Positions 43,527 to 59,749 of a stretch of 64,000 bases of DNA are shown one piece after another. Made by a program: the position numbers and the translations under genes. The notes beneath the pieces were generated by a model, which was not told where the DNA came from, did no database searches, and saw nothing but the letters and a program-made list of their open reading frames with translations. The number at the start of each line of letters is the position of its first letter. Within the stretch, counting starts at the first letter, position 1. The stretch comes from Sphingorhabdus sp. (GTDB taxonomy: Bacteria > Pseudomonadota > Alphaproteobacteria > Sphingomonadales > Sphingomonadaceae): contig JBOFLS010000083.1 of NCBI GenBank assembly GCA_051657985.1, positions 1,358 through 65,357 on the forward strand. Reading direction: 5' to 3'.

Positions 43527-44015
43527 TCAGGCCTCCAGACTGCGCCAGTCTCTACTCACAAGCGTTTCCTGGATTGCGGTGCGCGTTTCGAGCTTGCCGT
43601 TCCTGATCCAGTGCCAGGTGCGGCAGCGGCTTTGCCCATCATCGGCAAGCTGGATCATCTCGTACAGATAAAGCGACGGATCGCCCTGCCGCTGCCAGTA
43701 GAGCATCACGGTGCGGTTATATTCGTCCAGCCCAACTTCTGCGGCCCAGCCGACGATCAACTCGTTATCCCACCATATCCGCTTGTCTCTATATTCGGCT
43801 GGAAAATCGCGGATGTCGGTGCGGCCGTCATCCCATGTGTAGTGATTGGTCTGGTGATAGGGGTGGGGTCCGCTATCAGGAAAGCGGCAGAACAAGCGCG
43901 ATTTATGCTGATCGATCTGTTCGTCCTTATCGTTGAAATAGGTATAGACGCCGTCCCAGACACCTTCATGGCGGGCAAGCAGCGGCATATCTTCGCGGAT
44001 CGACATGATGTTCAT
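43527..44015 (-). CDS. Hypothetical aromatic-rich beta-barrel-like protein (DUF3598/lipocalin-like, tentative)
   Basis: Translationally coupled in the operon; HEG.W.G.Y N-terminus, many Trp/Tyr and alternating strand pattern. The family name is from recall only. Confidence 0.6.
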   Translation of the reverse strand: MNIMSIREDMPLLARHEGVWDGVYTYFNDKDEQIDQHKSRLFCRFPDSGPHPYHQTNHYTWDDGRTDIRDFPAEYRDKRIWWDNELIVGWAAEVGLDEYNRTVMLYWQRQGDPSLYLYEMIQLADDGQSRCRTWHWIRNGKLETRTAIQETLVSRDWRSLEA

Positions 44016-45391
44016 TCTCCTCGGGTGCTAAGGGCAATATGAAAGGCTTTGGCTGCCGTCGCCTTGAGCAGCGCGCGGTGCTCGCGGGCGAGCCTTTCGG
44101 CAGTAATCATCGCAGGATCGAAATCGATCGCATGCTCTGCATCGGCTTCGTACCAGGGGGCAAAGAAATGACGCGCGCGAACGATATTCCATGCCTTGTT
44201 CAAATAGGTCCCATGCCGATTTGGCGAAAGGTCTGGAAAAAGTAAGGAAGGGTCGCCTTGGTGGTGATGTTGTTCAATCACTATGGCGGTTGAACCCCTT
44301 TCCTTGGCAACAACGTCAAAAACGGCTTGCCATGCGTGCCAATCTGTTGGTGCTTTACCGTTCCAATCATCAGACAGGCCATGACCTGGCGGATCCATGA
44401 CAAAAGCCGATTGTTCGAACATATCTAACGAGCGTCCTGGCGCGGGGATATGCATCGTCTCGCCGCCGCTTGAGCCGCGCCAATGGATAAGGCCGTCGAA
44501 GAGATCGGTCTGTACATGGAGAAATTGCGAATCTTGATCCTCGGCAAAGACTGCAACTTCCGGTCCGGCATGGGCCTTTAAAAAAGCGCGGCTCCGCTCT
44601 TCCAATTCCTGGGGCGTCGCCACTTTACACGCTTCCCAGTTTGCAGGCATTTGACCTAGCCGGTCGATATGCGCTTGCAGCGGATCGCCATCATAAGCGC
44701 TGATCATCACCGGCGGCGTCCTGGCACCAGCTAGAGGAATGTCGCGTGACGCGCGCAAGACCGCGCCATAGCCAAGCCGATAGGCATCGCCACTGTCGAG
44801 CATTTCCATAACGATCGCGTGCACCTTTGCCGGATCGGCATGAGGATGCGATAACCGTGCAGCCGGTCTTATATCGAACCACGGGAAAAACCAGCTTTGT
44901 TCCAGGATACGGTTCCACAGCCAAGTCAGATGTTCGCCATAAAGCGATGGCTGGAAAGGCGGCAGATAGGCTTCACCGAAGATCGCCATTTCCTCCGGCG
45001 TCCAGATCGCATAGCCTCCGACGGCAAGGCCGGTGAACAGTTCCGGATGGCGCTTCAAGGCGGTTACCAGAATGATCCCGCCCGAATGGAAGCCGTAAGC
45101 CAAGGTTCGTTCGATTCTGATCGCACGGACGAATTCGACAACCGCATCGGCATAGTCGTTTATGTCGGGATCGGCTCCATTGGCTTTTGAGGGCAGCGGA
45201 TGCGATTGGCCAAAGCCCGGCGTGTCGGGCGCAATGCAAGTGAAATGTTCGCCCCATTCCAGCATAAGCATGGCATATTCGGCTGATGATCGTGGACTTT
45301 GGTGTACCATGATCAACGGCGGTCCCTTGCCGCAGCGGCGGTAATGGACTTGTCGGCCATCAATTGTCAGATAGTGACGCGTAATCTGCAT
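44012..45391 (-). CDS. Alpha/beta-hydrolase-fold protein, two-domain, non-canonical elbow
   Basis: VHYRRCG.G.PL..VHQSP and APDTPGFGQS motifs, elbow YGFHSGG, and a degenerate second domain with MDPPGHGLSD. Start placed at ATG 45391. Confidence 0.8.
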   Translation of the reverse strand: MQITRHYLTIDGRQVHYRRCGKGPPLIMVHQSPRSSAEYAMLMLEWGEHFTCIAPDTPGFGQSHPLPSKANGADPDINDYADAVVEFVRAIRIERTLAYGFHSGGIILVTALKRHPELFTGLAVGGYAIWTPEEMAIFGEAYLPPFQPSLYGEHLTWLWNRILEQSWFFPWFDIRPAARLSHPHADPAKVHAIVMEMLDSGDAYRLGYGAVLRASRDIPLAGARTPPVMISAYDGDPLQAHIDRLGQMPANWEACKVATPQELEERSRAFLKAHAGPEVAVFAEDQDSQFLHVQTDLFDGLIHWRGSSGGETMHIPAPGRSLDMFEQSAFVMDPPGHGLSDDWNGKAPTDWHAWQAVFDVVAKERGSTAIVIEQHHHQGDPSLLFPDLSPNRHGTYLNKAWNIVRARHFFAPWYEADAEHAIDFDPAMITAERLAREHRALLKATAAKAFHIALSTRGE

Positions 45392-45397
45392 GCTGCG

Positions 45398-45417
45398 AAA
45401 GTTGTCCGGACAAATTT
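45398..45417. promoter_or_regulatory. Palindromic operator, copy 1
   Basis: aaagTTGTCCGGACAAattt in the 84-bp divergent promoter region between the hydrolase and isochorismatase operons. Confidence 0.8.
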
Positions 45418-45475
45418 TGCTCGACAAGCCTGTACGTCCAAGTCAAAAGCGATGCAAGCTATGGAAGGAAAATTA

Positions 45476-49936: not shown

Positions 49937-50959
49937 ATGAAGGCTTACGGCATAGGACCGCAATCGGGTATCGAAGGGCTGCATCTCTTTGCAGCCGCCG
50001 AACCGGTGATCGAACCGGGCAAGATCGTCGTTCGCGTTACCGCTGCAGGGCTCAATTATCGCGATCTCATGCTATTGCGCGGGCAATATGGCGCGGCGCA
50101 ACCGGAAAAGCGGATACCCTTGTCCGATGGCGTCGGCATTGTCGAGGCAATCGGGGACGATGTAACAGGATTTCAAATTGGCGACCGCGTGATTGCCCCG
50201 CATTTTTTGGGTTGGGCTGATGGGCCGTTTTCGATGGCTGCCTTCGGCCAGGATATGGGCGTTACCGCCGATGGCTGGTTGGCTGAAAAAATCGCTTTTC
50301 CGGCGACCGCCGCGATCAAGCTTCCTGGCGCGATATCCGATGCCACCGCCGCTACATTGGCAGTCGCCGGTGCCACGGTATGGCATGCAATGGTCGCTTT
50401 CGGACAGGTGAAGCCAGGCGAATTGGTTCTGGCGCAGGGGACGGGGGGCGTGGCTATTTTCGCTCTGCTGCTCGCCAAGGCGCTTGGTGCTCGGTTTGCA
50501 ATCACGTCTTCGAGCGATGCGAAGCTTGAAAGATGCAAGGCCATGGGTGCGGACTTTGTCGGGAATTACCAAACGCAACCCGATTGGCCCTCGGCTCTAT
50601 TGGCGCAAACCGGGGGGCAGGGGGCTGATGTCATCATCGATACGCTCGGCTTTCCGGCATTCACCCAAACGATCCAGGCAGCGGCGGTTAATGGCCGGAT
50701 CGGCACTCTGGGGGCGCTTTCGGGTAGTCCACAGGATGCAGCCACGGGCAGCCAGGGTTTGATCATAGCAAAAAACTTGACAATTAAGGGCATTGCTTCG
50801 GGCAGTCGTGCGATGCTTCAGGCCGTTCTCGAGATTGTGGCGCGGCATGGCATCGAAATGCCCATCGATCGCGCATTCGATTTCTCCGATACGCCAGCCG
50901 CCTTTACCCATCTCAACAGCGGGACGCATTTGGGGAAAGTGTTAATTAGGATTAACTAG
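49937..50959 (+). CDS. MDR-family NAD(P)H oxidoreductase (zinc-independent, quinone-reductase-like)
   Basis: GLNYRD, IP.SDGVG.V, QGTGGVA.F and HLGKV motifs. Confidence 0.88.
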   Translation: MKAYGIGPQSGIEGLHLFAAAEPVIEPGKIVVRVTAAGLNYRDLMLLRGQYGAAQPEKRIPLSDGVGIVEAIGDDVTGFQIGDRVIAPHFLGWADGPFSMAAFGQDMGVTADGWLAEKIAFPATAAIKLPGAISDATAATLAVAGATVWHAMVAFGQVKPGELVLAQGTGGVAIFALLLAKALGARFAITSSSDAKLERCKAMGADFVGNYQTQPDWPSALLAQTGGQGADVIIDTLGFPAFTQTIQAAAVNGRIGTLGALSGSPQDAATGSQGLIIAKNLTIKGIASGSRAMLQAVLEIVARHGIEMPIDRAFDFSDTPAAFTHLNSGTHLGKVLIRIN

Positions 50960-51675
50960 CGCTTTAGCTCGACCAGTTCATACCAGGTCATCATATAACC
51001 GCCCACTCCGCCTTTTAGGAAAATGGCGTCTTCATCATTGGTAATCCACAGGTCATAGGGTGGATGCGCGCCTGCCATGCCTGCGCTACCATCGTCAACG
51101 AACTGGAAATGCCGCGCATTGAAAGTACCTGCTTGAACGGTTACTTCCTCCTGGCCTAGAAAGATGCCGTCGATCTTCACTTGCGCGATCATCGGTGGGG
51201 TCGCGCCGCGATGGTCGGGGCTGGGAAGGTAGCAATTGAACTTGTGCCGCTCGCCCTCATGGCTCCAGCGATGCATGCCCAGCATATAGCCATCGGCTAC
51301 GATCGGGTGCGTACCGAAACCGTCCAGAGGAAGTTCCGCCTCCACGCGCTGCGAAAGCCGGCCGATCGATGGACCGAAGCTTTCGCATTCGATCGTCTGG
51401 CCATCGAAGCGCAGCCAACCCGATCCCATAAAAGCATCGCCGACGGTCAAACGCACATGCAGATCTATGGGTTGGCCATGCTCGTCCAGGCTATAGATGA
51501 CGTCTCGCATAACGGTAGGTGCCGGTTCTTCGATCTCGCAATGCGCACGCAGAGTGACCTTGCCGTCGCTATGGCGGGTGAACAGGAAAGTTTCAAAACC
51601 GCGTGGTTCATCGAGGCGTTCGGGCTTTTTCGAGGTGTAGGCGATCCGGCCTTCGATGCTGCGATGCTGCATCAC
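50956..51675 (-). CDS. Hypothetical beta-rich protein
   Basis: 239 aa, coupled to the upstream gene by ATGA overlap. No family recognised. Confidence 0.7.
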   Translation of the reverse strand: MMQHRSIEGRIAYTSKKPERLDEPRGFETFLFTRHSDGKVTLRAHCEIEEPAPTVMRDVIYSLDEHGQPIDLHVRLTVGDAFMGSGWLRFDGQTIECESFGPSIGRLSQRVEAELPLDGFGTHPIVADGYMLGMHRWSHEGERHKFNCYLPSPDHRGATPPMIAQVKIDGIFLGQEEVTVQAGTFNARHFQFVDDGSAGMAGAHPPYDLWITNDEDAIFLKGGVGGYMMTWYELVELKR

Positions 51676-52034
51676 ATTTCCCGCAATGTTTTTGAAAGCT
51701 CCTCGACACTAGGCTCGGCCAATTCCTCCAGCGCTTCCATATCCTGCTGCACGCCGCGCATGATGCGGGCGATATATTCGCGGGTTTGCATCCCACGTTC
51801 GTTCCCCGCTGCGCGATCGGGCGTATAGGCTTCGATATCGGCACGGCTGATCGTACCTTTGGCTTCAAGCAATCGTTCGATGGTATCGAGCCGTTCGCGC
51901 AGCACCGAAACCTCACCGGCCAGGGCCATTACGATAGAAAGCGTACGATCGATCGCCGGATCGTCGAAATAGTGTGGCCGCTTGCCTTTGGCTTTGGCCC
52001 CGGCGCGAGCGATCCAGTCTATGTCATCGTTCAT
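51672..52034 (-). CDS. Small hypothetical helical/coiled-coil protein
   Basis: 120 aa, coupled on both sides; heptad segment LAGEVSVLRERLDTIERLL. Confidence 0.7.
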   Translation of the reverse strand: MNDDIDWIARAGAKAKGKRPHYFDDPAIDRTLSIVMALAGEVSVLRERLDTIERLLEAKGTISRADIEAYTPDRAAGNERGMQTREYIARIMRGVQQDMEALEELAEPSVEELSKTLREM

Positions 52035-53233
52035 GCAGCCGGTTTCCAGGCGCCATAGGCGTTCCAGCTAGCGGCGCGACCATGGTCTTCGCCTTCGCCC
52101 TGGCGCTGTTTGGGGAACACGGTTTCGTCGACCACCGCGGTTACTCCGGTTACGAACTGGCAATCGTGCGGCAGACCCTTTTCGGCCATTATGCCCTTGA
52201 GGTCGAGCGCATGCATAGACGACCAGAAGGGTTCGTTGTTGTTGAACGCATCCCAATCGCGGATGAACTGCTCGTAAAGTGGCATCGCGTCGGAATATTG
52301 CGGCTGTTCCAGATGCAGCATCAGCCCACCGGGCGCAAGTATGCGCGCGCTTTCCCCGATGATACGGGGAAGCGCGGAACCGGATAGCTCGTGCAGATAC
52401 ATCGTCGTTTGCACCCAATCGAAGCTTTCATCCTCGAACGCGTTCATATCCTCGGCATTCATCTGGATAAATTTCAGGTTGTGCGCGCCAAGCGCCTGCG
52501 CGCGCGCATGACCGTAGCGAAGAGACGGGGCAGCGGTATCGATCGCGATCACTTCCGTATCCGGAAAGGCGAGCGCCAGCGGCACGACGTTATGGCCGAT
52601 CGTACAGCCAAGGTCGAGAATGCGCCGTGGCACCCAGCCGGGGCGCTCCTTTTTGATCCATTCGACCAGCGCTTGTCCCCCACCATCCGACAAAGCGCCA
52701 AGGCCGCCGCCGGTGGTTGCGAAGATGCCGCAGTCGTAATTCGCACCCGCAGAAACGTCGCCCGGACGTTCCTCGCCATGATAGCTGCCGGGCATGCAGT
52801 GAATGTCGATTGCTGCCTGATAGCGCGGCACCTGCACCGAGGGATCAAGCCGCAACGTATCGCGGCCCTCGTTATACTGCCGCGCCTTGGCATCGAGTTC
52901 GTCCAACTGGCGCAACACCATCGACCGACCGTTCTGCTGGCGCATTTCCATCGAGTTGCGCTTCAATGCCGACCAGAAGCGGTGCCAGGAATCCTTGTTC
53001 ATCGCATGACGGATCTCGAACCGGTCCTTGGGCTCGCGGCCCTGTTCTTTCATAAAAGTGGGCAGCACGCGTTTGTCATAGGCAAGCTTGTTTCCAGGGC
53101 CTAGCGCGGACGCCATATATTTGTTGAAGTTTGCCAGAAAATTGAACCGCGCCGCTTCGTCATGGCTGGGTGTGGGAAACACCGCATGGCGGGTGACGGC
53201 AGTGTAGGGTGGTGGGATTTCAGGCTTGCTCAT
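52031..53233 (-). CDS. Class I SAM-dependent methyltransferase-fold protein with N-terminal extension
   Basis: ILDLGCTIG motif I variant, IDTA, NAEDM..F.DESFD.V...MYLHE and LAPGG. Confidence 0.82.
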   Translation of the reverse strand: MSKPEIPPPYTAVTRHAVFPTPSHDEAARFNFLANFNKYMASALGPGNKLAYDKRVLPTFMKEQGREPKDRFEIRHAMNKDSWHRFWSALKRNSMEMRQQNGRSMVLRQLDELDAKARQYNEGRDTLRLDPSVQVPRYQAAIDIHCMPGSYHGEERPGDVSAGANYDCGIFATTGGGLGALSDGGGQALVEWIKKERPGWVPRRILDLGCTIGHNVVPLALAFPDTEVIAIDTAAPSLRYGHARAQALGAHNLKFIQMNAEDMNAFEDESFDWVQTTMYLHELSGSALPRIIGESARILAPGGLMLHLEQPQYSDAMPLYEQFIRDWDAFNNNEPFWSSMHALDLKGIMAEKGLPHDCQFVTGVTAVVDETVFPKQRQGEGEDHGRAASWNAYGAWKPAA

Positions 53234-54360
53234 ATCAGTCCATCCTTGGCCAAACGGGCAATGGTTTCTTCGCTGATACGCTTGAAATGGTCACGGCCAG
53301 GGGTTTTGACAACACCATTTTCAAGCAGGCTGTCGGCGTGTTGATGCGTATCCGCGGCATAGGTTGCGGCGAACAGGGCATTGCGCTGGCGGGACAATGT
53401 GTTCGTCATTCCAGGCTTGCGCCGAGCGGCGCGAAGAGCGGCCAGATCGAGATCGGCAAAAGCGGTAAACGTTTCGCCACTGTTCGACTGCGCAAGGATA
53501 TTGCCTTTCCAGTCGATCACCATCGAATTGCCGTCGGCAGACGCCTCGGGAAGCGGGGTGTCGGTAATGCCGGCGGTGTTGGCGGAGATGACATAAGCCA
53601 GATTTTCGAAGGCCCGAGCTCGCTTGGCGATCATTTTGGGGGTCGCCATCGGGGAACCGATTTCGGACGAGCTATGCACGAAAATTTCCGCACCGCGCAG
53701 TGCGTGCGCGCGGGCGATTTCCGGATAGAGAATTTCTTCTGACGCGATTGCCGCCAGATTGCCGATTTCGGTCCGCGCAACGGGAAACGCGCCGTCAAGA
53801 CCATAGATATCCAGATATTTCGACCAGACATCATGCGGTGTAGGCGCAAACATCGAGTTTAAACGGCGATAGCGCAGTACGACATTGCCGTTGGGTGCGA
53901 TAACGAAGCTTGCCTGAAAATAAAGGCCGGGGAAGTGGCGGTCGGCCTCGTAAGCGTTGCCGGCAAGGAACAGTTTTTGTTCCTGCGCGATTTGGCTCAG
54001 CGCTTCATATTCAGGGCCGTCGACTTCCAGCGCGGCCTTATCGGTGAATTCCGGTATCGAAATGGCTCCCGGATAGCTGGTAAGAATATATTCGGGCAAT
54101 ACGGCAAGGCGCACGCGTGTGCCGCTATATTGATTGATGAACTTGGTGGCCGCACGAATCTTGGGATCGAGTGCAGCAATGGTCTCCAGCATCTGCTTGC
54201 GCGCGGCAGCCTTATCGGGCGTTCGCTCGATCGAACGAGCGGCGAACTGCAACGCCACGGCAGCATAGTTTTTTGGATCAGCCATTCCTTGTGCCCCTAC
54301 CGGCAGGGGCAGTGCGCCTGCCATTATTACTGCCAAAGCATCCCGTCTTCTCATCTTCAT
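53230..54360 (-). CDS. Nitrilase/CN-hydrolase-fold protein with variant triad and possible Tat signal
   Basis: VLPEY (Glu), YRRL where YRK is expected, IASEEILYPE where ICYD/E..FPE is expected, and N-terminal RRRDAL...VGA. Confidence 0.8.
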   Translation of the reverse strand: MKMRRRDALAVIMAGALPLPVGAQGMADPKNYAAVALQFAARSIERTPDKAAARKQMLETIAALDPKIRAATKFINQYSGTRVRLAVLPEYILTSYPGAISIPEFTDKAALEVDGPEYEALSQIAQEQKLFLAGNAYEADRHFPGLYFQASFVIAPNGNVVLRYRRLNSMFAPTPHDVWSKYLDIYGLDGAFPVARTEIGNLAAIASEEILYPEIARAHALRGAEIFVHSSSEIGSPMATPKMIAKRARAFENLAYVISANTAGITDTPLPEASADGNSMVIDWKGNILAQSNSGETFTAFADLDLAALRAARRKPGMTNTLSRQRNALFAATYAADTHQHADSLLENGVVKTPGRDHFKRISEETIARLAKDGLI

Positions 54361-54371
54361 CGGTCATGCCT

Positions 54372-55916
54372 CTATAGACCCAGCGCGCCAGGGTTCATCA
54401 AGCCCCTGGGGTCGATATTCGCTTTGACCGCCTGCAAAATTTGCCAGCCGCGCGGATCGCTGCGTTCCTTGATTGGATAGGTGCGGCCCAGCTGAAAATG
54501 AATGCCGTCCATGCGTCCGAAAATAGCAATCACTTCGCGCCGCAATTTTTCGACCAGCGCACGCGCCGCTTCGTTGCGCGGGTGGATCGGCAGCTTTTTG
54601 AAATGTGCATCCTCGATGAAATGCTTGTGAATTTCCCACTGCTCGTCGGGCCAGTAAAAGCAGGGCTCGATCAGGAAGCCGGTAGTACCGACCACAAGGA
54701 ACATATAGCCTGCGCCCACCCCTAACCGCTCCATTTCGGCAGCGTTCGTTTCAAACAAGGCGGTCAGTGTGTCGATCGTTTCCAACGCTTTGGAATGACG
54801 GACGATGCCATGTACCGGTGCCCAGCGTTCGCCTTCGGGGCCAGCCATCGAATTGGGCGGGAGGAAGGGGTTGGCACGCAATATTTTGGGAATGGTGTTT
54901 TCCACGATGCGTCCGCCATTCGCGGCAACGATCGCCTCGACTGCGGCCATATCGGCATCGACAGCGGCTTGAGATCGGCCTTCGCAGATCAGATGGATCG
55001 AAAAGGCGCAATCATCAAGGAAGGAACGACCGGCAGCGACCACCTTTGCCCCCTCCTTCAATCCTTTCCAGAACCCGCCTTGCGACTTGACCATATTGAC
55101 CAGCGATTTCGTATCGGAAACCAGACTGTCGCGCTTCATCCGTTGCGCTTGCAGGAATGGATCGAACCCGAAGGCTTCGGATGCCAGTCCGCGCCGTCCG
55201 ATCTCGCTCATCGCGGCGCAATATTGCTTGGGTGCATCGAAGGCGAAGCTGCCATAAGCGAAAGCTTCGCCATCATGGATCAGGGGCAGGGTAATCGTTG
55301 CTTTTACCCCAAATGCGCCGGCATCTGCGCCGAAAAGGCCCGTCAGGTCGGGGCCAAAGGGACGTAAAAAATCGCTTCCGGTTTTGACGATCGAACCGTT
55401 AGCGAGTACGATTTCAGCGCAGATGATGTTCGGGGCGATCGTGCCGTCGCGTCCGCCCCAGAACAAACCGTTCTGGCTCATTCCGCCTCCGATGCTGGCA
55501 TAGAGGCCCGAAAGCGTGCCCCATAGAGGCGTGCGCAATCCCTTGGGACGGAGCGCTTCGTAAAGCGCATGCCAGGTGCAGCCCGCTTCGACGGTAGCCG
55601 TCATATCGACCATATTGATATCGAGAATGCGCTGCATCCGCCCCATATCGACAATCAGAGCACCTGCCTCAGGAGCAACATAGCCGCTCGTATAGCTCAT
55701 CCCGCCACCGCGCGGTACGATCGCGATTCCGGCTGCGGTCGCTAGGCCGATGCCATGGGCCAGTTCTTCCTTGTTTCCCGGCCGGAACACCGCAATCGGC
55801 GCAGGACCTTTGGTGAAGATATCCTGTGCATAAAGCGCACATTGCGCCGGATCGGTGATCAACGCCTCGGTTGCAATGCCGTTCAACGGGTGATCGGTTC
55901 GAAGCTGCGTTGCCAT
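54372..55916 (-). CDS. FAD-binding oxidoreductase (VAO/PCMH, GlcD-like)
   Basis: P.AVFRP, VPRGGG.S...G, V.AG, ASIGG and DLTGLF..G.FGV motifs. Confidence 0.88.
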   Translation of the reverse strand: MATQLRTDHPLNGIATEALITDPAQCALYAQDIFTKGPAPIAVFRPGNKEELAHGIGLATAAGIAIVPRGGGMSYTSGYVAPEAGALIVDMGRMQRILDINMVDMTATVEAGCTWHALYEALRPKGLRTPLWGTLSGLYASIGGGMSQNGLFWGGRDGTIAPNIICAEIVLANGSIVKTGSDFLRPFGPDLTGLFGADAGAFGVKATITLPLIHDGEAFAYGSFAFDAPKQYCAAMSEIGRRGLASEAFGFDPFLQAQRMKRDSLVSDTKSLVNMVKSQGGFWKGLKEGAKVVAAGRSFLDDCAFSIHLICEGRSQAAVDADMAAVEAIVAANGGRIVENTIPKILRANPFLPPNSMAGPEGERWAPVHGIVRHSKALETIDTLTALFETNAAEMERLGVGAGYMFLVVGTTGFLIEPCFYWPDEQWEIHKHFIEDAHFKKLPIHPRNEAARALVEKLRREVIAIFGRMDGIHFQLGRTYPIKERSDPRGWQILQAVKANIDPRGLMNPGALGL

Positions 55917-55919
55917 GTT

Positions 55920-57173
55920 TCAAGCCTTTTGCTGATCGGGATAGCGCCCAAGCGCCAACAACATTGCCCCCCCAATCACGAACATCGCTGCTGCCGCCAT
56001 CAGCATGCCGTCATAGCTGCCCGTGTTTACACGAACCGTACCGTAAATGACCGGCGAGATTGCCGACATCAGTCCGAAAGGCATGTACAGCATACCGTAT
56101 ATCCGCCCGAAATGCGCCATGCCGAAATAGCGTGCAGCCAAGAATGCAATGAGGTCGCTTTCCGCACCCGCCGCAAAACCCAAGAAAAAAGCGGCGGTGG
56201 AGATGGCGGGCATTGCACTATCGGTACCAAGCAATAGATAGCATGCGACCGCGGGCAAGCACAGCACGGGAAAGGCAATTGCCGGGCCCCAGACCTTGTC
56301 AAGCATGTAGCCAACACCAATACGGCCGCAAAGCAGGCCGATGCCAACAATCCCCATGATTCTGGCGGCAGTGTCCCGATCAATGCCATGATCGCCGACG
56401 ATTGCGGGTAAGTGGATATGGGCGCCGCCATAGGCGCTGGCGATCAAAAAGATCGAGAACCATAACACCCAGAACTGGCGGGTCCTTACCGCCTGCTTGA
56501 AAGTCATCCCCGCCAGCTCGCCAGTCATGGTAGAAAGCGCGGCAGGCCGTTCGTCGGCGCGAGGTTCGCGAAAAAAGGCGATCGTCGCTGGTAAGGCAAT
56601 CAGCAGCGGCAGCAATGCCACAATCGGAAACATCGCCCGCCAACCGAAATTATCACTACTCCAAACGGCAAGGCTTGGAACGATAAAGGCAGCCGCACTC
56701 GTACCGACCAACATTATGCCCAATGCCAGTCCGCGCTGTCGTACGAACCACAGGCTTAGGCCTCTGCTCCATGTGACCGGAGTGGATCCGATACCGATCA
56801 TACCCACGAGCAGCCAAAGAAAATAAAAGCCAATCAAGGTGGGCGGGGTAAAATAAAGCGAGGAAAAGGCAAGAATGAAGCCGACGAGCGACCAGATACC
56901 CACTTTACGCACGCCATAACGATCCGCTAGCCAGCCGAAAAAAGGGGCAAGCAGCGATGCCGTAATGCCGAATACCGTTATACCGATGCTAACCTGTTGG
57001 ACGTTCCAACCATATTCGGCCTCAAGCGGCGTGAACAGGAAGCCCAGAACATTGAAAGGGAGGGGCGATGCACCGCACATCGTGCCCAAAAAACCGGCAA
57101 GCAAAACTTTCCAGCCGAGTTTAAATTCCGATTGCTGCGCGTTCAGAGCCTCTACACTTTTTGATGCTATCAT
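55920..57173 (-). CDS. MFS transporter
   Basis: About 12 hydrophobic segments; GWLADRYGVRK MFS motif A; GYMLDK in the second half. Confidence 0.9.
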   Translation of the reverse strand: MIASKSVEALNAQQSEFKLGWKVLLAGFLGTMCGASPLPFNVLGFLFTPLEAEYGWNVQQVSIGITVFGITASLLAPFFGWLADRYGVRKVGIWSLVGFILAFSSLYFTPPTLIGFYFLWLLVGMIGIGSTPVTWSRGLSLWFVRQRGLALGIMLVGTSAAAFIVPSLAVWSSDNFGWRAMFPIVALLPLLIALPATIAFFREPRADERPAALSTMTGELAGMTFKQAVRTRQFWVLWFSIFLIASAYGGAHIHLPAIVGDHGIDRDTAARIMGIVGIGLLCGRIGVGYMLDKVWGPAIAFPVLCLPAVACYLLLGTDSAMPAISTAAFFLGFAAGAESDLIAFLAARYFGMAHFGRIYGMLYMPFGLMSAISPVIYGTVRVNTGSYDGMLMAAAAMFVIGGAMLLALGRYPDQQKA

Positions 57174-57241: not shown

Positions 57242-59749
57242 TCAGAATTTATATTTTGCCCTAACTGTCCATTCCATCGGTCGATTTAAATAGGAGTAAT
57301 TGGCCAATGTCGATTGTACGAAACTTTCGTTGAAGCAATTGGTACAATCGACTGAAAGCGACCATTTGTTATCGGGGCCTTTGAGTGCGAGGCCGGCGTT
57401 CACCAACCAAGCCGCCTCGCTGAAGGATCCGACAATGAACCGACCATTGTTCAGATTTGCGGGAAAAGTGCCATTTGTCCCGGTTACCGAACCGCTGTAG
57501 ATCGTAAGATTGCTGGTACCGGTTTCCTGATCCGATCGATAGGTGGCGTTAACCGACGGAACGATCGCCAAGTCATTGCCGATTTCTGCGCGATAACTTC
57601 CTCCGATGGCCAACGACCATTTAGGTGTACGCACTGGGGTCGAGATATTGCCTTGCGGATTGACAATTCCCTGTCCGCAAGATGCTGTTCCCGGACCTCC
57701 TGCGATATTCCCTGCAGCAAGAGCTGCACGACATTGAGCCTGTAGGCCCGCTGAAGTCGGAATTCCATAAATGTCGATAAGAGGAGCGCCATTTGGGATG
57801 ATATAGCGGTCATCTTGATAACCGACGTTGGCGTATAGATTCAGGCCATCGACTGGTTGAAAGCTCAGTTCCGCTTCGATCCCCTTGTTCCTGTAGTCGG
57901 CAAAATTCTGGGTAATGAATACCGGAGCACCGACCGGGGGAAGGAAAGCCGAAGGCGTTTGTAGATTTTTCACATCCATCCAGAAAAACGTCACATTTGC
58001 CCGAACCCGGCGATCGAAGAGATCGGACTTAATGCCGGCTTCATAAGACCAGACCTTTTCCGGCGCGAAAGGCGTCAGTAAGGTAGCTGAGGTTGCCCGT
58101 GCATTCCACCCGCCCGATTTGAACCCGCGCGTTGCCGAAGCAAAAAGCAGGACGTCTTCGTTGGGTTTGAAGTTGATCGCAAAACGCGGCGTCCATAATT
58201 TTGCGGTTTGCGAGCGAGGAATGGCTCGTCCGCTTGGAGAGACAAGCAAGCTATTGTCAAGACATGTGGCCTCAATGCTGCCATCGTTGCAGGAAGCCCG
58301 ATTATCTGCGATACTGAAAGTCTTCTTTTCATCAGTGTAACGAATACCCGCCGTCAGTTTGATCTGCTCTGTAATGTTGAAATCCGCTTGAGCATAGCCT
58401 GCAAGTGCTGTCGTTTTATTCCGAAGGATGCGATCTCCGAGCAACAATGAAAACCCGCCCGGCACAACCGTAAACGGAGGGAAGGGCAATGCGTTTAGCG
58501 AAAATATATCGGCAAAATCGGTGCGGTTGCGCTCATCCAGATAATAACCACCGGCTACGAAATCCACAAAACCATCGCCAAAACTTCCTGCAATTTTGAT
58601 TTCCTGTGAAAACTGCTCGTGCTGGCCATCGTTTAAGATGGTAAATCCGCCGCGTGTAAATCCGCGAACTACGGGATTTGGTGTGCTTATGCTTGGAGCG
58701 CCTCGACCATCAAAGAAGTCGAGCGCGAATTTTTGGCTCACATTGACATAGCCTGTAATGAGGCTGAGCGTTATGTCGCTTGAAAGGTCTATATCGAGAT
58801 TGGAGGTAATAAGGTCGGTTGCAGAACGGTTCCCTTGCAGATAATTCGCCTTTTCTCCGCGTATTACCAAAGGCGCATAAGTTGACGTTGATACCGTATT
58901 GCCAACCTGAAGGCCTGTTGTTGCAAACCGGCCCTTGCAATCATCGGAATCGGCTGGATTACAATCAAAATTCAGGATGTTTTCGCCATTGGCTTCAAGA
59001 TGCGCATAAGCTGCTTTCCAGCGAGCGCCGCCAAGATCGCCTGACAAGCCAAGCCGAACCCCCCAGCCATCATCGTCGTTCATACGCTGGCCTGTCGTGA
59101 CGTTTTTCACATATCCGTCATCGTTCTGCCAATAGCCACTAATTTTCGCCCCAAAACTGGGAGCCAGCGGGATATCAACCGATGCACGGGCAATCTTGCG
59201 ATCGTAGCGGCCATAACCGATCTCCGCATAGCCGCCGAAATCAGGGCCAGGTTCCCGCATGACCACGCTTACGGCACCGCCGGTTGTATTACGTCCGAAT
59301 AGCGTACCCTGGGGTCCACGCAAAACCTCTATGCGTTCGACATCGAACAGAGAAAGATTGTTCGCATTCTGGCGACTGAGATAGATATCATCTACATAAG
59401 TGCCCACCGGAGGATCAAAGGTCGCGATGGTCTCGGTATTGCCCAATCCTCTCAAAAAATAGGCATTAGCCGAGCCTATTCCGGTATTGTTCTGGGCTGT
59501 CATATTGGGAATAAACTGACCCAGCTGCAAAGCATTCGAAACACCCTGAGCCTCAAGCTGTTCAGACGAAAAAGCCGAAATCGCGATGGGTACATCTTGA
59601 ACATTTTCATTGCGGCGCTGCGCGGTAACGACGATTTCCTCGATCCCGCCCTGTTCGGCAGCATCATCGCCAGCGTCTTGAGCAAAGCTTGGAAAAGCAG
59701 TGATCATTACGGCAACCGCCGTTCCGCTTTTCAACATAGTGCGTAACAT
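57242..59749 (-). CDS. TonB-dependent receptor
   Basis: Signal peptide, TonB box EEIVVTAQRR, plug motif RIEVLRGPQGTLFGRNTTGGA, C-terminal aromatic strand ending YKF. Confidence 0.95.
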   Translation of the reverse strand: MLRTMLKSGTAVAVMITAFPSFAQDAGDDAAEQGGIEEIVVTAQRRNENVQDVPIAISAFSSEQLEAQGVSNALQLGQFIPNMTAQNNTGIGSANAYFLRGLGNTETIATFDPPVGTYVDDIYLSRQNANNLSLFDVERIEVLRGPQGTLFGRNTTGGAVSVVMREPGPDFGGYAEIGYGRYDRKIARASVDIPLAPSFGAKISGYWQNDDGYVKNVTTGQRMNDDDGWGVRLGLSGDLGGARWKAAYAHLEANGENILNFDCNPADSDDCKGRFATTGLQVGNTVSTSTYAPLVIRGEKANYLQGNRSATDLITSNLDIDLSSDITLSLITGYVNVSQKFALDFFDGRGAPSISTPNPVVRGFTRGGFTILNDGQHEQFSQEIKIAGSFGDGFVDFVAGGYYLDERNRTDFADIFSLNALPFPPFTVVPGGFSLLLGDRILRNKTTALAGYAQADFNITEQIKLTAGIRYTDEKKTFSIADNRASCNDGSIEATCLDNSLLVSPSGRAIPRSQTAKLWTPRFAINFKPNEDVLLFASATRGFKSGGWNARATSATLLTPFAPEKVWSYEAGIKSDLFDRRVRANVTFFWMDVKNLQTPSAFLPPVGAPVFITQNFADYRNKGIEAELSFQPVDGLNLYANVGYQDDRYIIPNGAPLIDIYGIPTSAGLQAQCRAALAAGNIAGGPGTASCGQGIVNPQGNISTPVRTPKWSLAIGGSYRAEIGNDLAIVPSVNATYRSDQETGTSNLTIYSGSVTGTNGTFPANLNNGRFIVGSFSEAAWLVNAGLALKGPDNKWSLSVDCTNCFNESFVQSTLANYSYLNRPMEWTVRAKYKF

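Follow-up and report, generated by a model that had tools for sequence, protein, structure and literature searches.

The window analysed here is a stretch of 64,000 nucleotides from contig JBOFLS010000083.1 of a Sphingorhabdus sp. (assembly GCA_051657985.1; Sphingomonadales), and the gene under study lies on its minus strand (53230..54360), where it encodes a Cys-free nitrilase-superfamily (CN_hydrolase) protein of 376 amino acids with an active site that reads Glu90, Arg166, Asp177 and Ser207. This gene is the fourth in a tightly packed minus-strand operon and has a good Shine-Dalgarno site, AGAGG, which stands 8 nucleotides ahead of the ATG and overlaps the TAG stop codon of the upstream FAD oxidase gene. 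The Pfam profile CN_hydrolase PF00795 matches the protein with an E-value of 2.3e-32 and 112.8 bits (cut-off 23.2) over residues 61-314 and profile positions 11-256 of 256, while its scores for the NCBIfam equivalogs of aliphatic amidase (NF009802, 53.9 vs 427 bits) and formamidase (NF009803, 71.8 vs 406) as well as other NCBIfam matches (AguB and others) are far below the cut-offs. An AlphaFold2 model with a 94-sequence alignment as input (pLDDT 91.5, pTM 0.88) displays the alpha-beta-beta-alpha sandwich of this superfamily with its strand-to-helix elbow. Foldseek comparison of the model with the PDB found aliphatic amidase 2uxy and formamidases as the best matches (E-values of about 1e-22 to 1e-20), and those among the top 50 listed are nitrilase-superfamily enzymes without exception. 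By profile and fold, the protein belongs to the nitrilase superfamily, yet it lacks the defining Glu-Lys-Cys triad and is no equivalog of AmiE or AmiF.

The catalytic positions were assigned from phmmer alignments to PDB chains (B. cereus formamidase 5g3o, mouse Nit2 2w1v, and Pyrococcus amidase 7ovg/6ypa), and their codons on the minus strand were read by eye. The catalytic Glu is retained as Glu90 of the LPEY motif (codon GAA, 54091..54093). The second Arg of RYRR, Arg166 (CGT, 53863..53865), aligns with the catalytic Lys of the solved relatives in 4 out of 4 alignments, and so does Ser207, the Ser of IASEEILYPE (TCA, 53740..53742), with the catalytic Cys. An initial annotation of this locus from the sequence alone had already described a Glu-Arg-Ser variant of the triad, and its reading of these three motifs is borne out by the alignments. 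It missed a third change, the replacement of the second Glu of the amidases' catalytic tetrad (PVEPW in the formamidase alignment, Lys+8) by Asp177 of PHDVW (GAT, 53830..53832), an exchange that is common to the whole wider family. In the AlphaFold2 model, Glu90 lies right behind strand 83-87, Arg166 right behind strand 160-165, and Ser207 at the joint of strand 200-206 and helix 207-211 that forms the nucleophile elbow, such that all three occupy their canonical topological positions. A Cys recruited into the active site from elsewhere in the protein, which the initial annotation had named as a finding that would speak against its reading, is impossible because the sequence contains none. Two other CN_hydrolases encoded in the same genome (L001 and L002) keep YRK or YDK together with ICWD or ICYD, i.e., Lys and Cys.

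This variant is widely conserved. A word-indexed search returned 4,902 homologues, and each of the 120 best clusters (73-89% identity) carries Glu, Arg, Asp, and Ser at the 4 sites (hereafter E-R-D-S, with other combinations written likewise), so that Arg and Ser are conserved among close homologues and none of these clusters keeps Lys and Cys. When 1.84 billion cluster representatives were searched exhaustively with HMMER, 135 proteins came up at E<=1e-30. The 4 sites of all 311 aligned domains read ERDS in 133 cases, EKDC in 32, EKSC in 20, ERDC in 13, EKDA in 9, EKDS in 5, and QKDA in 3; the 120 best clusters are among the ERDS cases. Species genomes of GTDB were scanned for the clade motifs LRYRRL[NT]SM and [AE]PTPHDVW with confirmation of relatives by tblastn, and this identified the locus in at least 589 species genomes; the matches listed were nearly all Sphingomonadales, with one from Steroidobacteraceae. 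Two contigs filed under the metagenome-assembled genomes Synechococcus sp. UW140 and Hydrogenophaga intermedia (L016 and L075) carry an island of Sphingomonadales type, and they are likely mis-binned because their sequences fall beside those of Sphingosinicellaceae and Blastomonas in the orthologue tree described below. At a finer scale, the gene was found in 4 of 25 genomes of the same genus (including the window's own) and in 3 of 16 other genomes sampled from the same order; the island is thus accessory and patchy in its distribution.

Several lines of evidence show how strictly the variant is maintained. Reading frames are intact in 80 related loci, and dN/dS values calculated pairwise with 12 orthologues lie at 0.06-0.19 (dS saturated). 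Ser207 is invariant across the E-R-D-S clade of the tree described below, whose members go down to 40-50% identity, and so are E90, R166, D177, E209, E214, R217, E225, and N253. Ser207 is encoded by TCN at 82 loci and by AGC at 5 (L048, L070, L074, L078, and L010), and 4 of these AGC loci (all except L010) are nested among TCN-using orthologues of Sphingomonadales. A switch between TCN and AGC takes two substitutions, with one single-step route leading via Cys (TGC). The retention of Ser across this change of codon family argues that the position requires a hydroxyl or, more generally, a nucleophile. Strong selection has kept the variant in hundreds of genomes of Sphingomonadales, and it presents itself as a real version of the active site and not as a broken gene, in agreement with the initial annotation, which had preferred a distinct subfamily over decay.

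The order in which these changes arose was approached with a maximum-likelihood tree of 94 full-length family members from which the 4 active-site positions had been removed. On the Lys side of this tree, EKDC proteins are found with scattered EKDA, EKDS, EKDG, and QKDA members, while the Arg side consists of 51 rows (support of 93 in the Shimodaira-Hasegawa-like approximate likelihood ratio test). Within the latter, ten E-R-D-C proteins branch successively below a 36-row clade of E-R-D-S proteins (support 97), and the sister of that clade is itself an E-R-D-C protein (P0137). The tree topology places the Lys-to-Arg exchange earlier and the Cys-to-Ser exchange later, i.e., in the order EKDC, ERDC, ERDS, because the E-R-D-C proteins branch below the E-R-D-S clade. 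The two changes therefore come out as sequential and not as the pair proposed by the initial annotation, and Arg at the Lys position evidently co-exists with Cys in living relatives. Beyond Asp177, the wider family shares the invariant residues P193, V194, T197, G200, E214, R217, E225, N253, R310, and R313.

Other branches of the family have taken different paths. Seven proteins of the Lys side (P0177, P0182, P0183, P0201, P0209, P0237, and P0251) form a separate clade in which Ala occupies the nucleophile position, and 2 of these also carry Gln in place of the catalytic Glu (QKDA). Such loss of the Glu has the look of relaxed catalytic constraint, which is not seen in the E-R-D-S clade, and the Ala-bearing proteins look like true pseudoenzymes; one of their genes lies between an Amidohydro_2 gene and an SBP_bac_5 gene. 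Many relatives of 580-750 amino acids comprise two tandem nitrilase-fold domains (P0132, P0134, P0139-P0140, P0144, P0147-P0149, and others), commonly one degenerate domain with Gly at the nucleophile position (e.g., -KDG, -KEG, or AQWG) and one E-K-S-C domain, and in a few of them both domains are E-K-D-C.

The protein begins with an N-terminal leader of 23 residues (MKMRRRDALAVIMAGALPLPVGA, codons 54292..54360, minus strand) that is followed by QG, as already described in the initial annotation, and combines an RR motif with a short hydrophobic stretch and a terminal VGA. By eye, this leader shows features of the twin-arginine translocation (Tat) pathway, as RRDALAVIMAGALPLPVGA-QG in this protein and as RRQFIA or RRHFLA in orthologues. 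Of the 120 close clusters, 65 start with a leader extension of 23-40 residues, as do 43 of 79 genomic orthologues; in these, a conserved (D/E)RR(Q/H)x-hydrophobic core is followed by variable hydrophobic and cleavage-site regions and A-x-A-like ends (e.g., RRQFIAS..AAA or RRHFLAG..AMA). In the AlphaFold2 model, residues 1-27 are of low confidence and the leader is unpacked, as a leader should be, and the Shine-Dalgarno site ahead of Met1 likewise favours it. The remaining orthologues start 2-12 residues ahead of the first strand, and these forms are truly leaderless, given that the start codon of one of them (L006) overlaps the stop codon of the oxidase gene. When leader state was mapped on a tree of Sphingomonadales orthologues rooted on distant E-R-D-S proteins, basal lineages were leader-bearing and the state changed at least 7 times (11 by parsimony) higher up. 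The leader thus looks ancestral to the Sphingomonadales orthologues and repeatedly lost.

The proposal of a Tat signal and periplasmic action holds in part: The N-terminus is twin-arginine-like as a sequence and export of this genome's copy is probable, but scans of 7 N-termini with the NCBIfam and Pfam hidden Markov models for Tat signals gave no match above threshold (PF10518 matched one orthologue only, with an E-value of 0.087 and 13.3 bits vs a cut-off of 22.7, and TIGR01409 none). Since the leader was lost at least 7 times inside identical operons and is absent from about half of the orthologues, periplasmic action is not general and cannot be essential to the protein's role. More distant E-R-D-S proteins are leaderless, which puts the Cys-to-Ser exchange before export; the lack of a thiol in the active site may have rendered export tolerable, but export did not bring it about. 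An E-R-D-A relative from a different sub-branch, P0181, has a textbook twin-arginine leader (MRHTRRDFAVMAAGLAVAQPAPAQA), and leaders have thus been joined to the family on more than one occasion. Co-export of the signal-less FAD oxidase as a Tat "hitch-hiker" was considered and rejected because leaderless orthologues keep the oxidase and leader-bearing ones can lack it (L037 and L052). Depletion of Cys as evidence of export (62 of 65 leader-bearing proteins have none, whereas 25 of 28 that clearly lack a leader have one) is confounded by phylogeny and was not used.

The genomic context was compared across 80 related loci, in which many absences fall at contig ends. All genes of the operon lie on the minus strand. 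It opens with a gene for a TonB-dependent receptor (57242..59749; 57 of 80 loci) and continues with a major facilitator superfamily (MFS) transporter resembling monocarboxylate/lactate transporters (55920..57173; 73 of 80). The third gene encodes a FAD_binding_4 (VAO/GlcD-type) oxidase without signal peptide (54372..55916; 67 of 80) that is closest to D-lactate and D-2-hydroxyacid dehydrogenases and matches D-lactate/glycolate-oxidase-type enzymes only. Downstream of the nitrilase-fold gene follow a 400-residue protein with a class I S-adenosylmethionine-methyltransferase fold (52031..53233; 77 of 80), whose start overlaps the nitrilase-fold gene's stop, a 120-residue protein that always comes after it (51672..52034; 77 of 80), and a 239-residue beta-barrel protein of DUF1849-like fold (50956..51675; 56 of 80). 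An aldehyde dehydrogenase neighbour is present at 53 of 80 loci. This conserved synteny speaks for a catabolic role. Family searches returned only generic class I methyltransferase matches for the methyltransferase-fold protein and no match at all for its N-terminal extension of about 190 residues; no Pfam or NCBIfam family matched the 120-residue protein, and no family matched the 239-residue one. The model of the latter (pLDDT 90.4) has a DUF1849 protein of Brucella, 6ntr, as its only clear structural relative.

In those 77 loci, the genes for the methyltransferase-fold and 120-residue proteins follow the nitrilase-fold gene with overlapping stops and starts, and this arrangement may reflect a complex or a coupled step; it is unusual for a catabolic operon to include a methyltransferase. 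The FAD oxidase is not obligatory for the function of the nitrilase-fold protein because some orthologous operons lack it and have the MFS gene directly before the nitrilase-fold gene (L037, L052, L067, L074, L083, L085, and L088-L090). Further genes of the surrounding island are conserved as well, encoding an isochorismatase-like amidase, two PuuE-like deacetylase-fold proteins, a LeuCD-like hydratase, HMG-CoA-lyase-like and CitE-like lyases, MaoC, an acyl-CoA dehydrogenase (ACAD), and CoA-transferases.

Distant E-R-D-S genes lie in other catabolic clusters. At L010, an aldehyde dehydrogenase gene, the E-R-D-S gene, and genes for a 246-residue and a 462-residue alpha/beta-fold protein adjoin a TonB receptor, a short-chain dehydrogenase/reductase, and an MFS transporter. 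The aldehyde dehydrogenase, the 246-residue protein directly after the E-R-D-S gene (a homologue of the beta-barrel protein), and the 462-residue protein are homologous to island proteins at 47%, 31%, and 33% identity, and the operon's TonB receptor also has a homologue at this locus. L097 has the order MFS, aldehyde dehydrogenase, E-R-D-S gene (42% and 47% identity to proteins of the window); the locus of P0176 holds two Amidase genes, Amidohydro_2, a TonB receptor, and an ACAD/CoA-transferase/MaoC set; and L009 reads CoA ligase, NMO, E-R-D-S gene, MBL, MaoC, and thioesterase. The recurring partners of distant E-R-D-S genes are an MFS transporter of the window's type and a succinate semialdehyde dehydrogenase (SSADH)-like aldehyde dehydrogenase, while distant members lack the methyltransferase-fold and 120-residue proteins, which marks that pair as an addition of Sphingomonadales by this comparison. 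The 471-residue alpha/beta-hydrolase-fold protein of the island (44012..45427, minus strand) has His in place of the usual elbow Ser (YGFHSGG), and its 33%-identical homologue in one operon with the distant E-R-D-S gene (L010:8968-10356) has the same His (YGYHTGA), such that two atypical "hydrolases" travel together.

We propose that the protein is an active nitrilase-fold hydrolase with Ser207 as nucleophile, and give this reading a probability of roughly 0.5. Its catalytic tetrad would have been remodelled stepwise from Glu-Lys-Glu-Cys to Glu90-Arg166-Asp177-Ser207. Glu90 would act as the base that deprotonates Ser207 for attack on the carbonyl of a small amide, or possibly an ester, to form an acyl-O-Ser intermediate, with the oxyanion stabilised by Arg166 and the backbone NH after the elbow, and with Asp177 as the second acid that orients the leaving group and the hydrolytic water. 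In this view the protein would catalyse the hydrolytic step in an accessory catabolic operon that is conserved in Sphingomonadales, within an island that may open a small nitrogen-containing acid and feed modules of C4/C5-dicarboxyl-CoA lyases. Recurrence of the SSADH-like aldehyde dehydrogenase and the MFS transporter as partners in distant lineages suggests that its product, or the product one step later, is an aldehyde-acid. Because of its twin-arginine-type leader, this genome's copy probably acts in the periplasm, after uptake through the outer membrane and before import by the MFS transporter, whereas leaderless orthologues would have to act in the cytoplasm. More tentatively, the clade may comprise the first natural Ser-nucleophile enzymes of the nitrilase superfamily with Arg for Lys, evolved in steps, in which the thiol-free site may have allowed Tat export; if so, an oxidation-sensitive and normally cytoplasmic fold is sent to the periplasm via Tat in Sphingomonadales. 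It seems less likely that the Ser form now acts on esters instead of amides and constitutes a methyl-ester protection/deprotection pair with the adjacent methyltransferase-fold protein, by analogy to the known pair of BioC and BioH.

Several observations weigh against a Ser-dependent hydrolase. In enzymes of the nitrilase superfamily, an engineered exchange of the Cys for Ser abolishes or nearly abolishes activity, and such mutants are used as substrate traps. On the Lys side of the tree the nucleophile was lost several times (EKDA, EKDS, EKDG, and QKDA), and this repeated loss in the wider family shows that members without it are able to persist. No description of a natural Ser/Arg variant was found in the searchable literature, outside of which most subscription-journal papers lie. 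The periplasmic step in particular is only weakly supported, given repeated loss of the leader and the lack of a Tat profile match above threshold. The first two of these points would fit a pseudoenzyme that serves as a ligand-binding or scaffolding subunit, e.g., in presenting substrate to the methyltransferase-fold protein or the FAD oxidase, with Ser207 conserved for binding or folding instead of catalysis. The near-constant, overlapping arrangement with the methyltransferase-fold and 120-residue genes and the degenerate N-domains of tandem relatives point the same way. We nevertheless consider this unlikely: Ser207 is invariant over deep divergence and survives a codon-family switch, and Glu90, Arg166, Asp177, and the pocket motifs are invariant as well, whereas the EKDA lineage also loses its Glu. 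In addition, distant E-R-D-S members lack the two downstream partners, and leader-bearing orthologues would sit apart from partners in the cytoplasm.

An enzyme that is active without a covalent Ser appears more doubtful still. Such an enzyme could use water activated by Glu90 or Asp177 on a carbonyl polarised by Arg166, or it could abandon C-N chemistry for hydration, isomerisation, or decarboxylation of an unsaturated dicarboxylate-type intermediate. The contexts of L009 and L097 show no obvious nitrogen chemistry, dicarboxylate and CoA enzymes abound in the island, and in members whose nucleophile is replaced by Ala or Gly every other conserved residue persists. The clade itself is strictly Ser and never Ala, Gly, or Thr, which argues for a specific role of the hydroxyl; the context of P0176 is rich in amidases, and we know of no precedent for such chemistry in the nitrilase fold. 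The notion of an ordinary amidase gene that is idiosyncratic, in decay, or mis-annotated would follow only from the prior expectation of an invariant triad, and it is refuted by the uniformity of close homologues, the breadth of distribution, and the low dN/dS described above; an intact frame, a confident model, and conserved synteny speak against it as well. The small remainder belongs to roles outside those considered here. Literature searches on this operon and on pathways of the maleimide or pyridine type found nothing usable.

Glu-Lys-Cys is treated as a defining and invariant feature of the nitrilase superfamily, and exchange of its Cys for Ser is the standard laboratory means of killing these enzymes. 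A large natural clade in which the Glu stands alongside Arg, Asp, and Ser, with living E-R-D-C intermediates, offers a ready-made evolutionary series (EKDC, ERDC, ERDS) that is easy to test, of real interest to enzymologists, and a route to ask how a thiol hydrolase becomes a hydroxyl hydrolase or a pseudoenzyme. The Ser/Arg variant overturns nothing by itself until activity is shown. The finding also flags a widespread, uncharacterised catabolic island of Sphingomonadales whose nitrilase-fold proteins are labelled "predicted amidohydrolase" or "carbon-nitrogen hydrolase" by annotation pipelines, with the altered catalytic residues unremarked.

Among characterised systems, the AmiE/AmiF branch (2uxy, 2plq, 2dyu/2e2k, and 5g3o) is closest, with the best matches in Foldseek and phmmer (3.4e-13), a similar length of about 340 residues with a C-terminal tail, and several shared features: the LPEY Glu, an acid two residues after the nucleophile, "YPE", and Pro-x-acid-x-Trp with the second acid. 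In contrast, identity is only about 20% and the equivalog cut-offs are missed; this family has Lys replaced by Arg, Cys by Ser, and the second Glu by Asp, and some of its members carry a probable export leader. Nit2/omega-amidase (2w1v) and other half-amidases of dicarboxylate monoamides have the same fold (phmmer 2.5e-12), and a similar role is plausible by analogy, since deamidation of a dicarboxylate monoamide would here take place beside an enzyme oxidising 2-hydroxyacids or aldehydes. Unlike this protein with its S-E-E-I-L, Nit2 retains the canonical Glu-Lys-Cys triad, and four residues beyond the Cys (CYDMR) it carries an Arg that we take to bind the substrate carboxylate; there is no orthology. 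As a mechanistic analogy only, the Ser-Glu-Asp proteases of the sedolisin type activate a Ser nucleophile by Glu with an Asp assisting, which illustrates that Ser-Glu chemistry is feasible in an unrelated fold that shares neither sequence nor structure with this one. Engineered AmiF C166S (2e2l) and CPA C158S (5h8k/5h8l), of which 2e2l and 5h8k are among the Foldseek matches listed, place Ser at the nucleophile elbow just as the natural protein does. These mutants, however, are traps that are catalytically dead and still have the Lys and the second Glu, whereas the natural clade carries the additional changes Arg166, Asp177, Ala206, and Glu208 and has been maintained by purifying selection.

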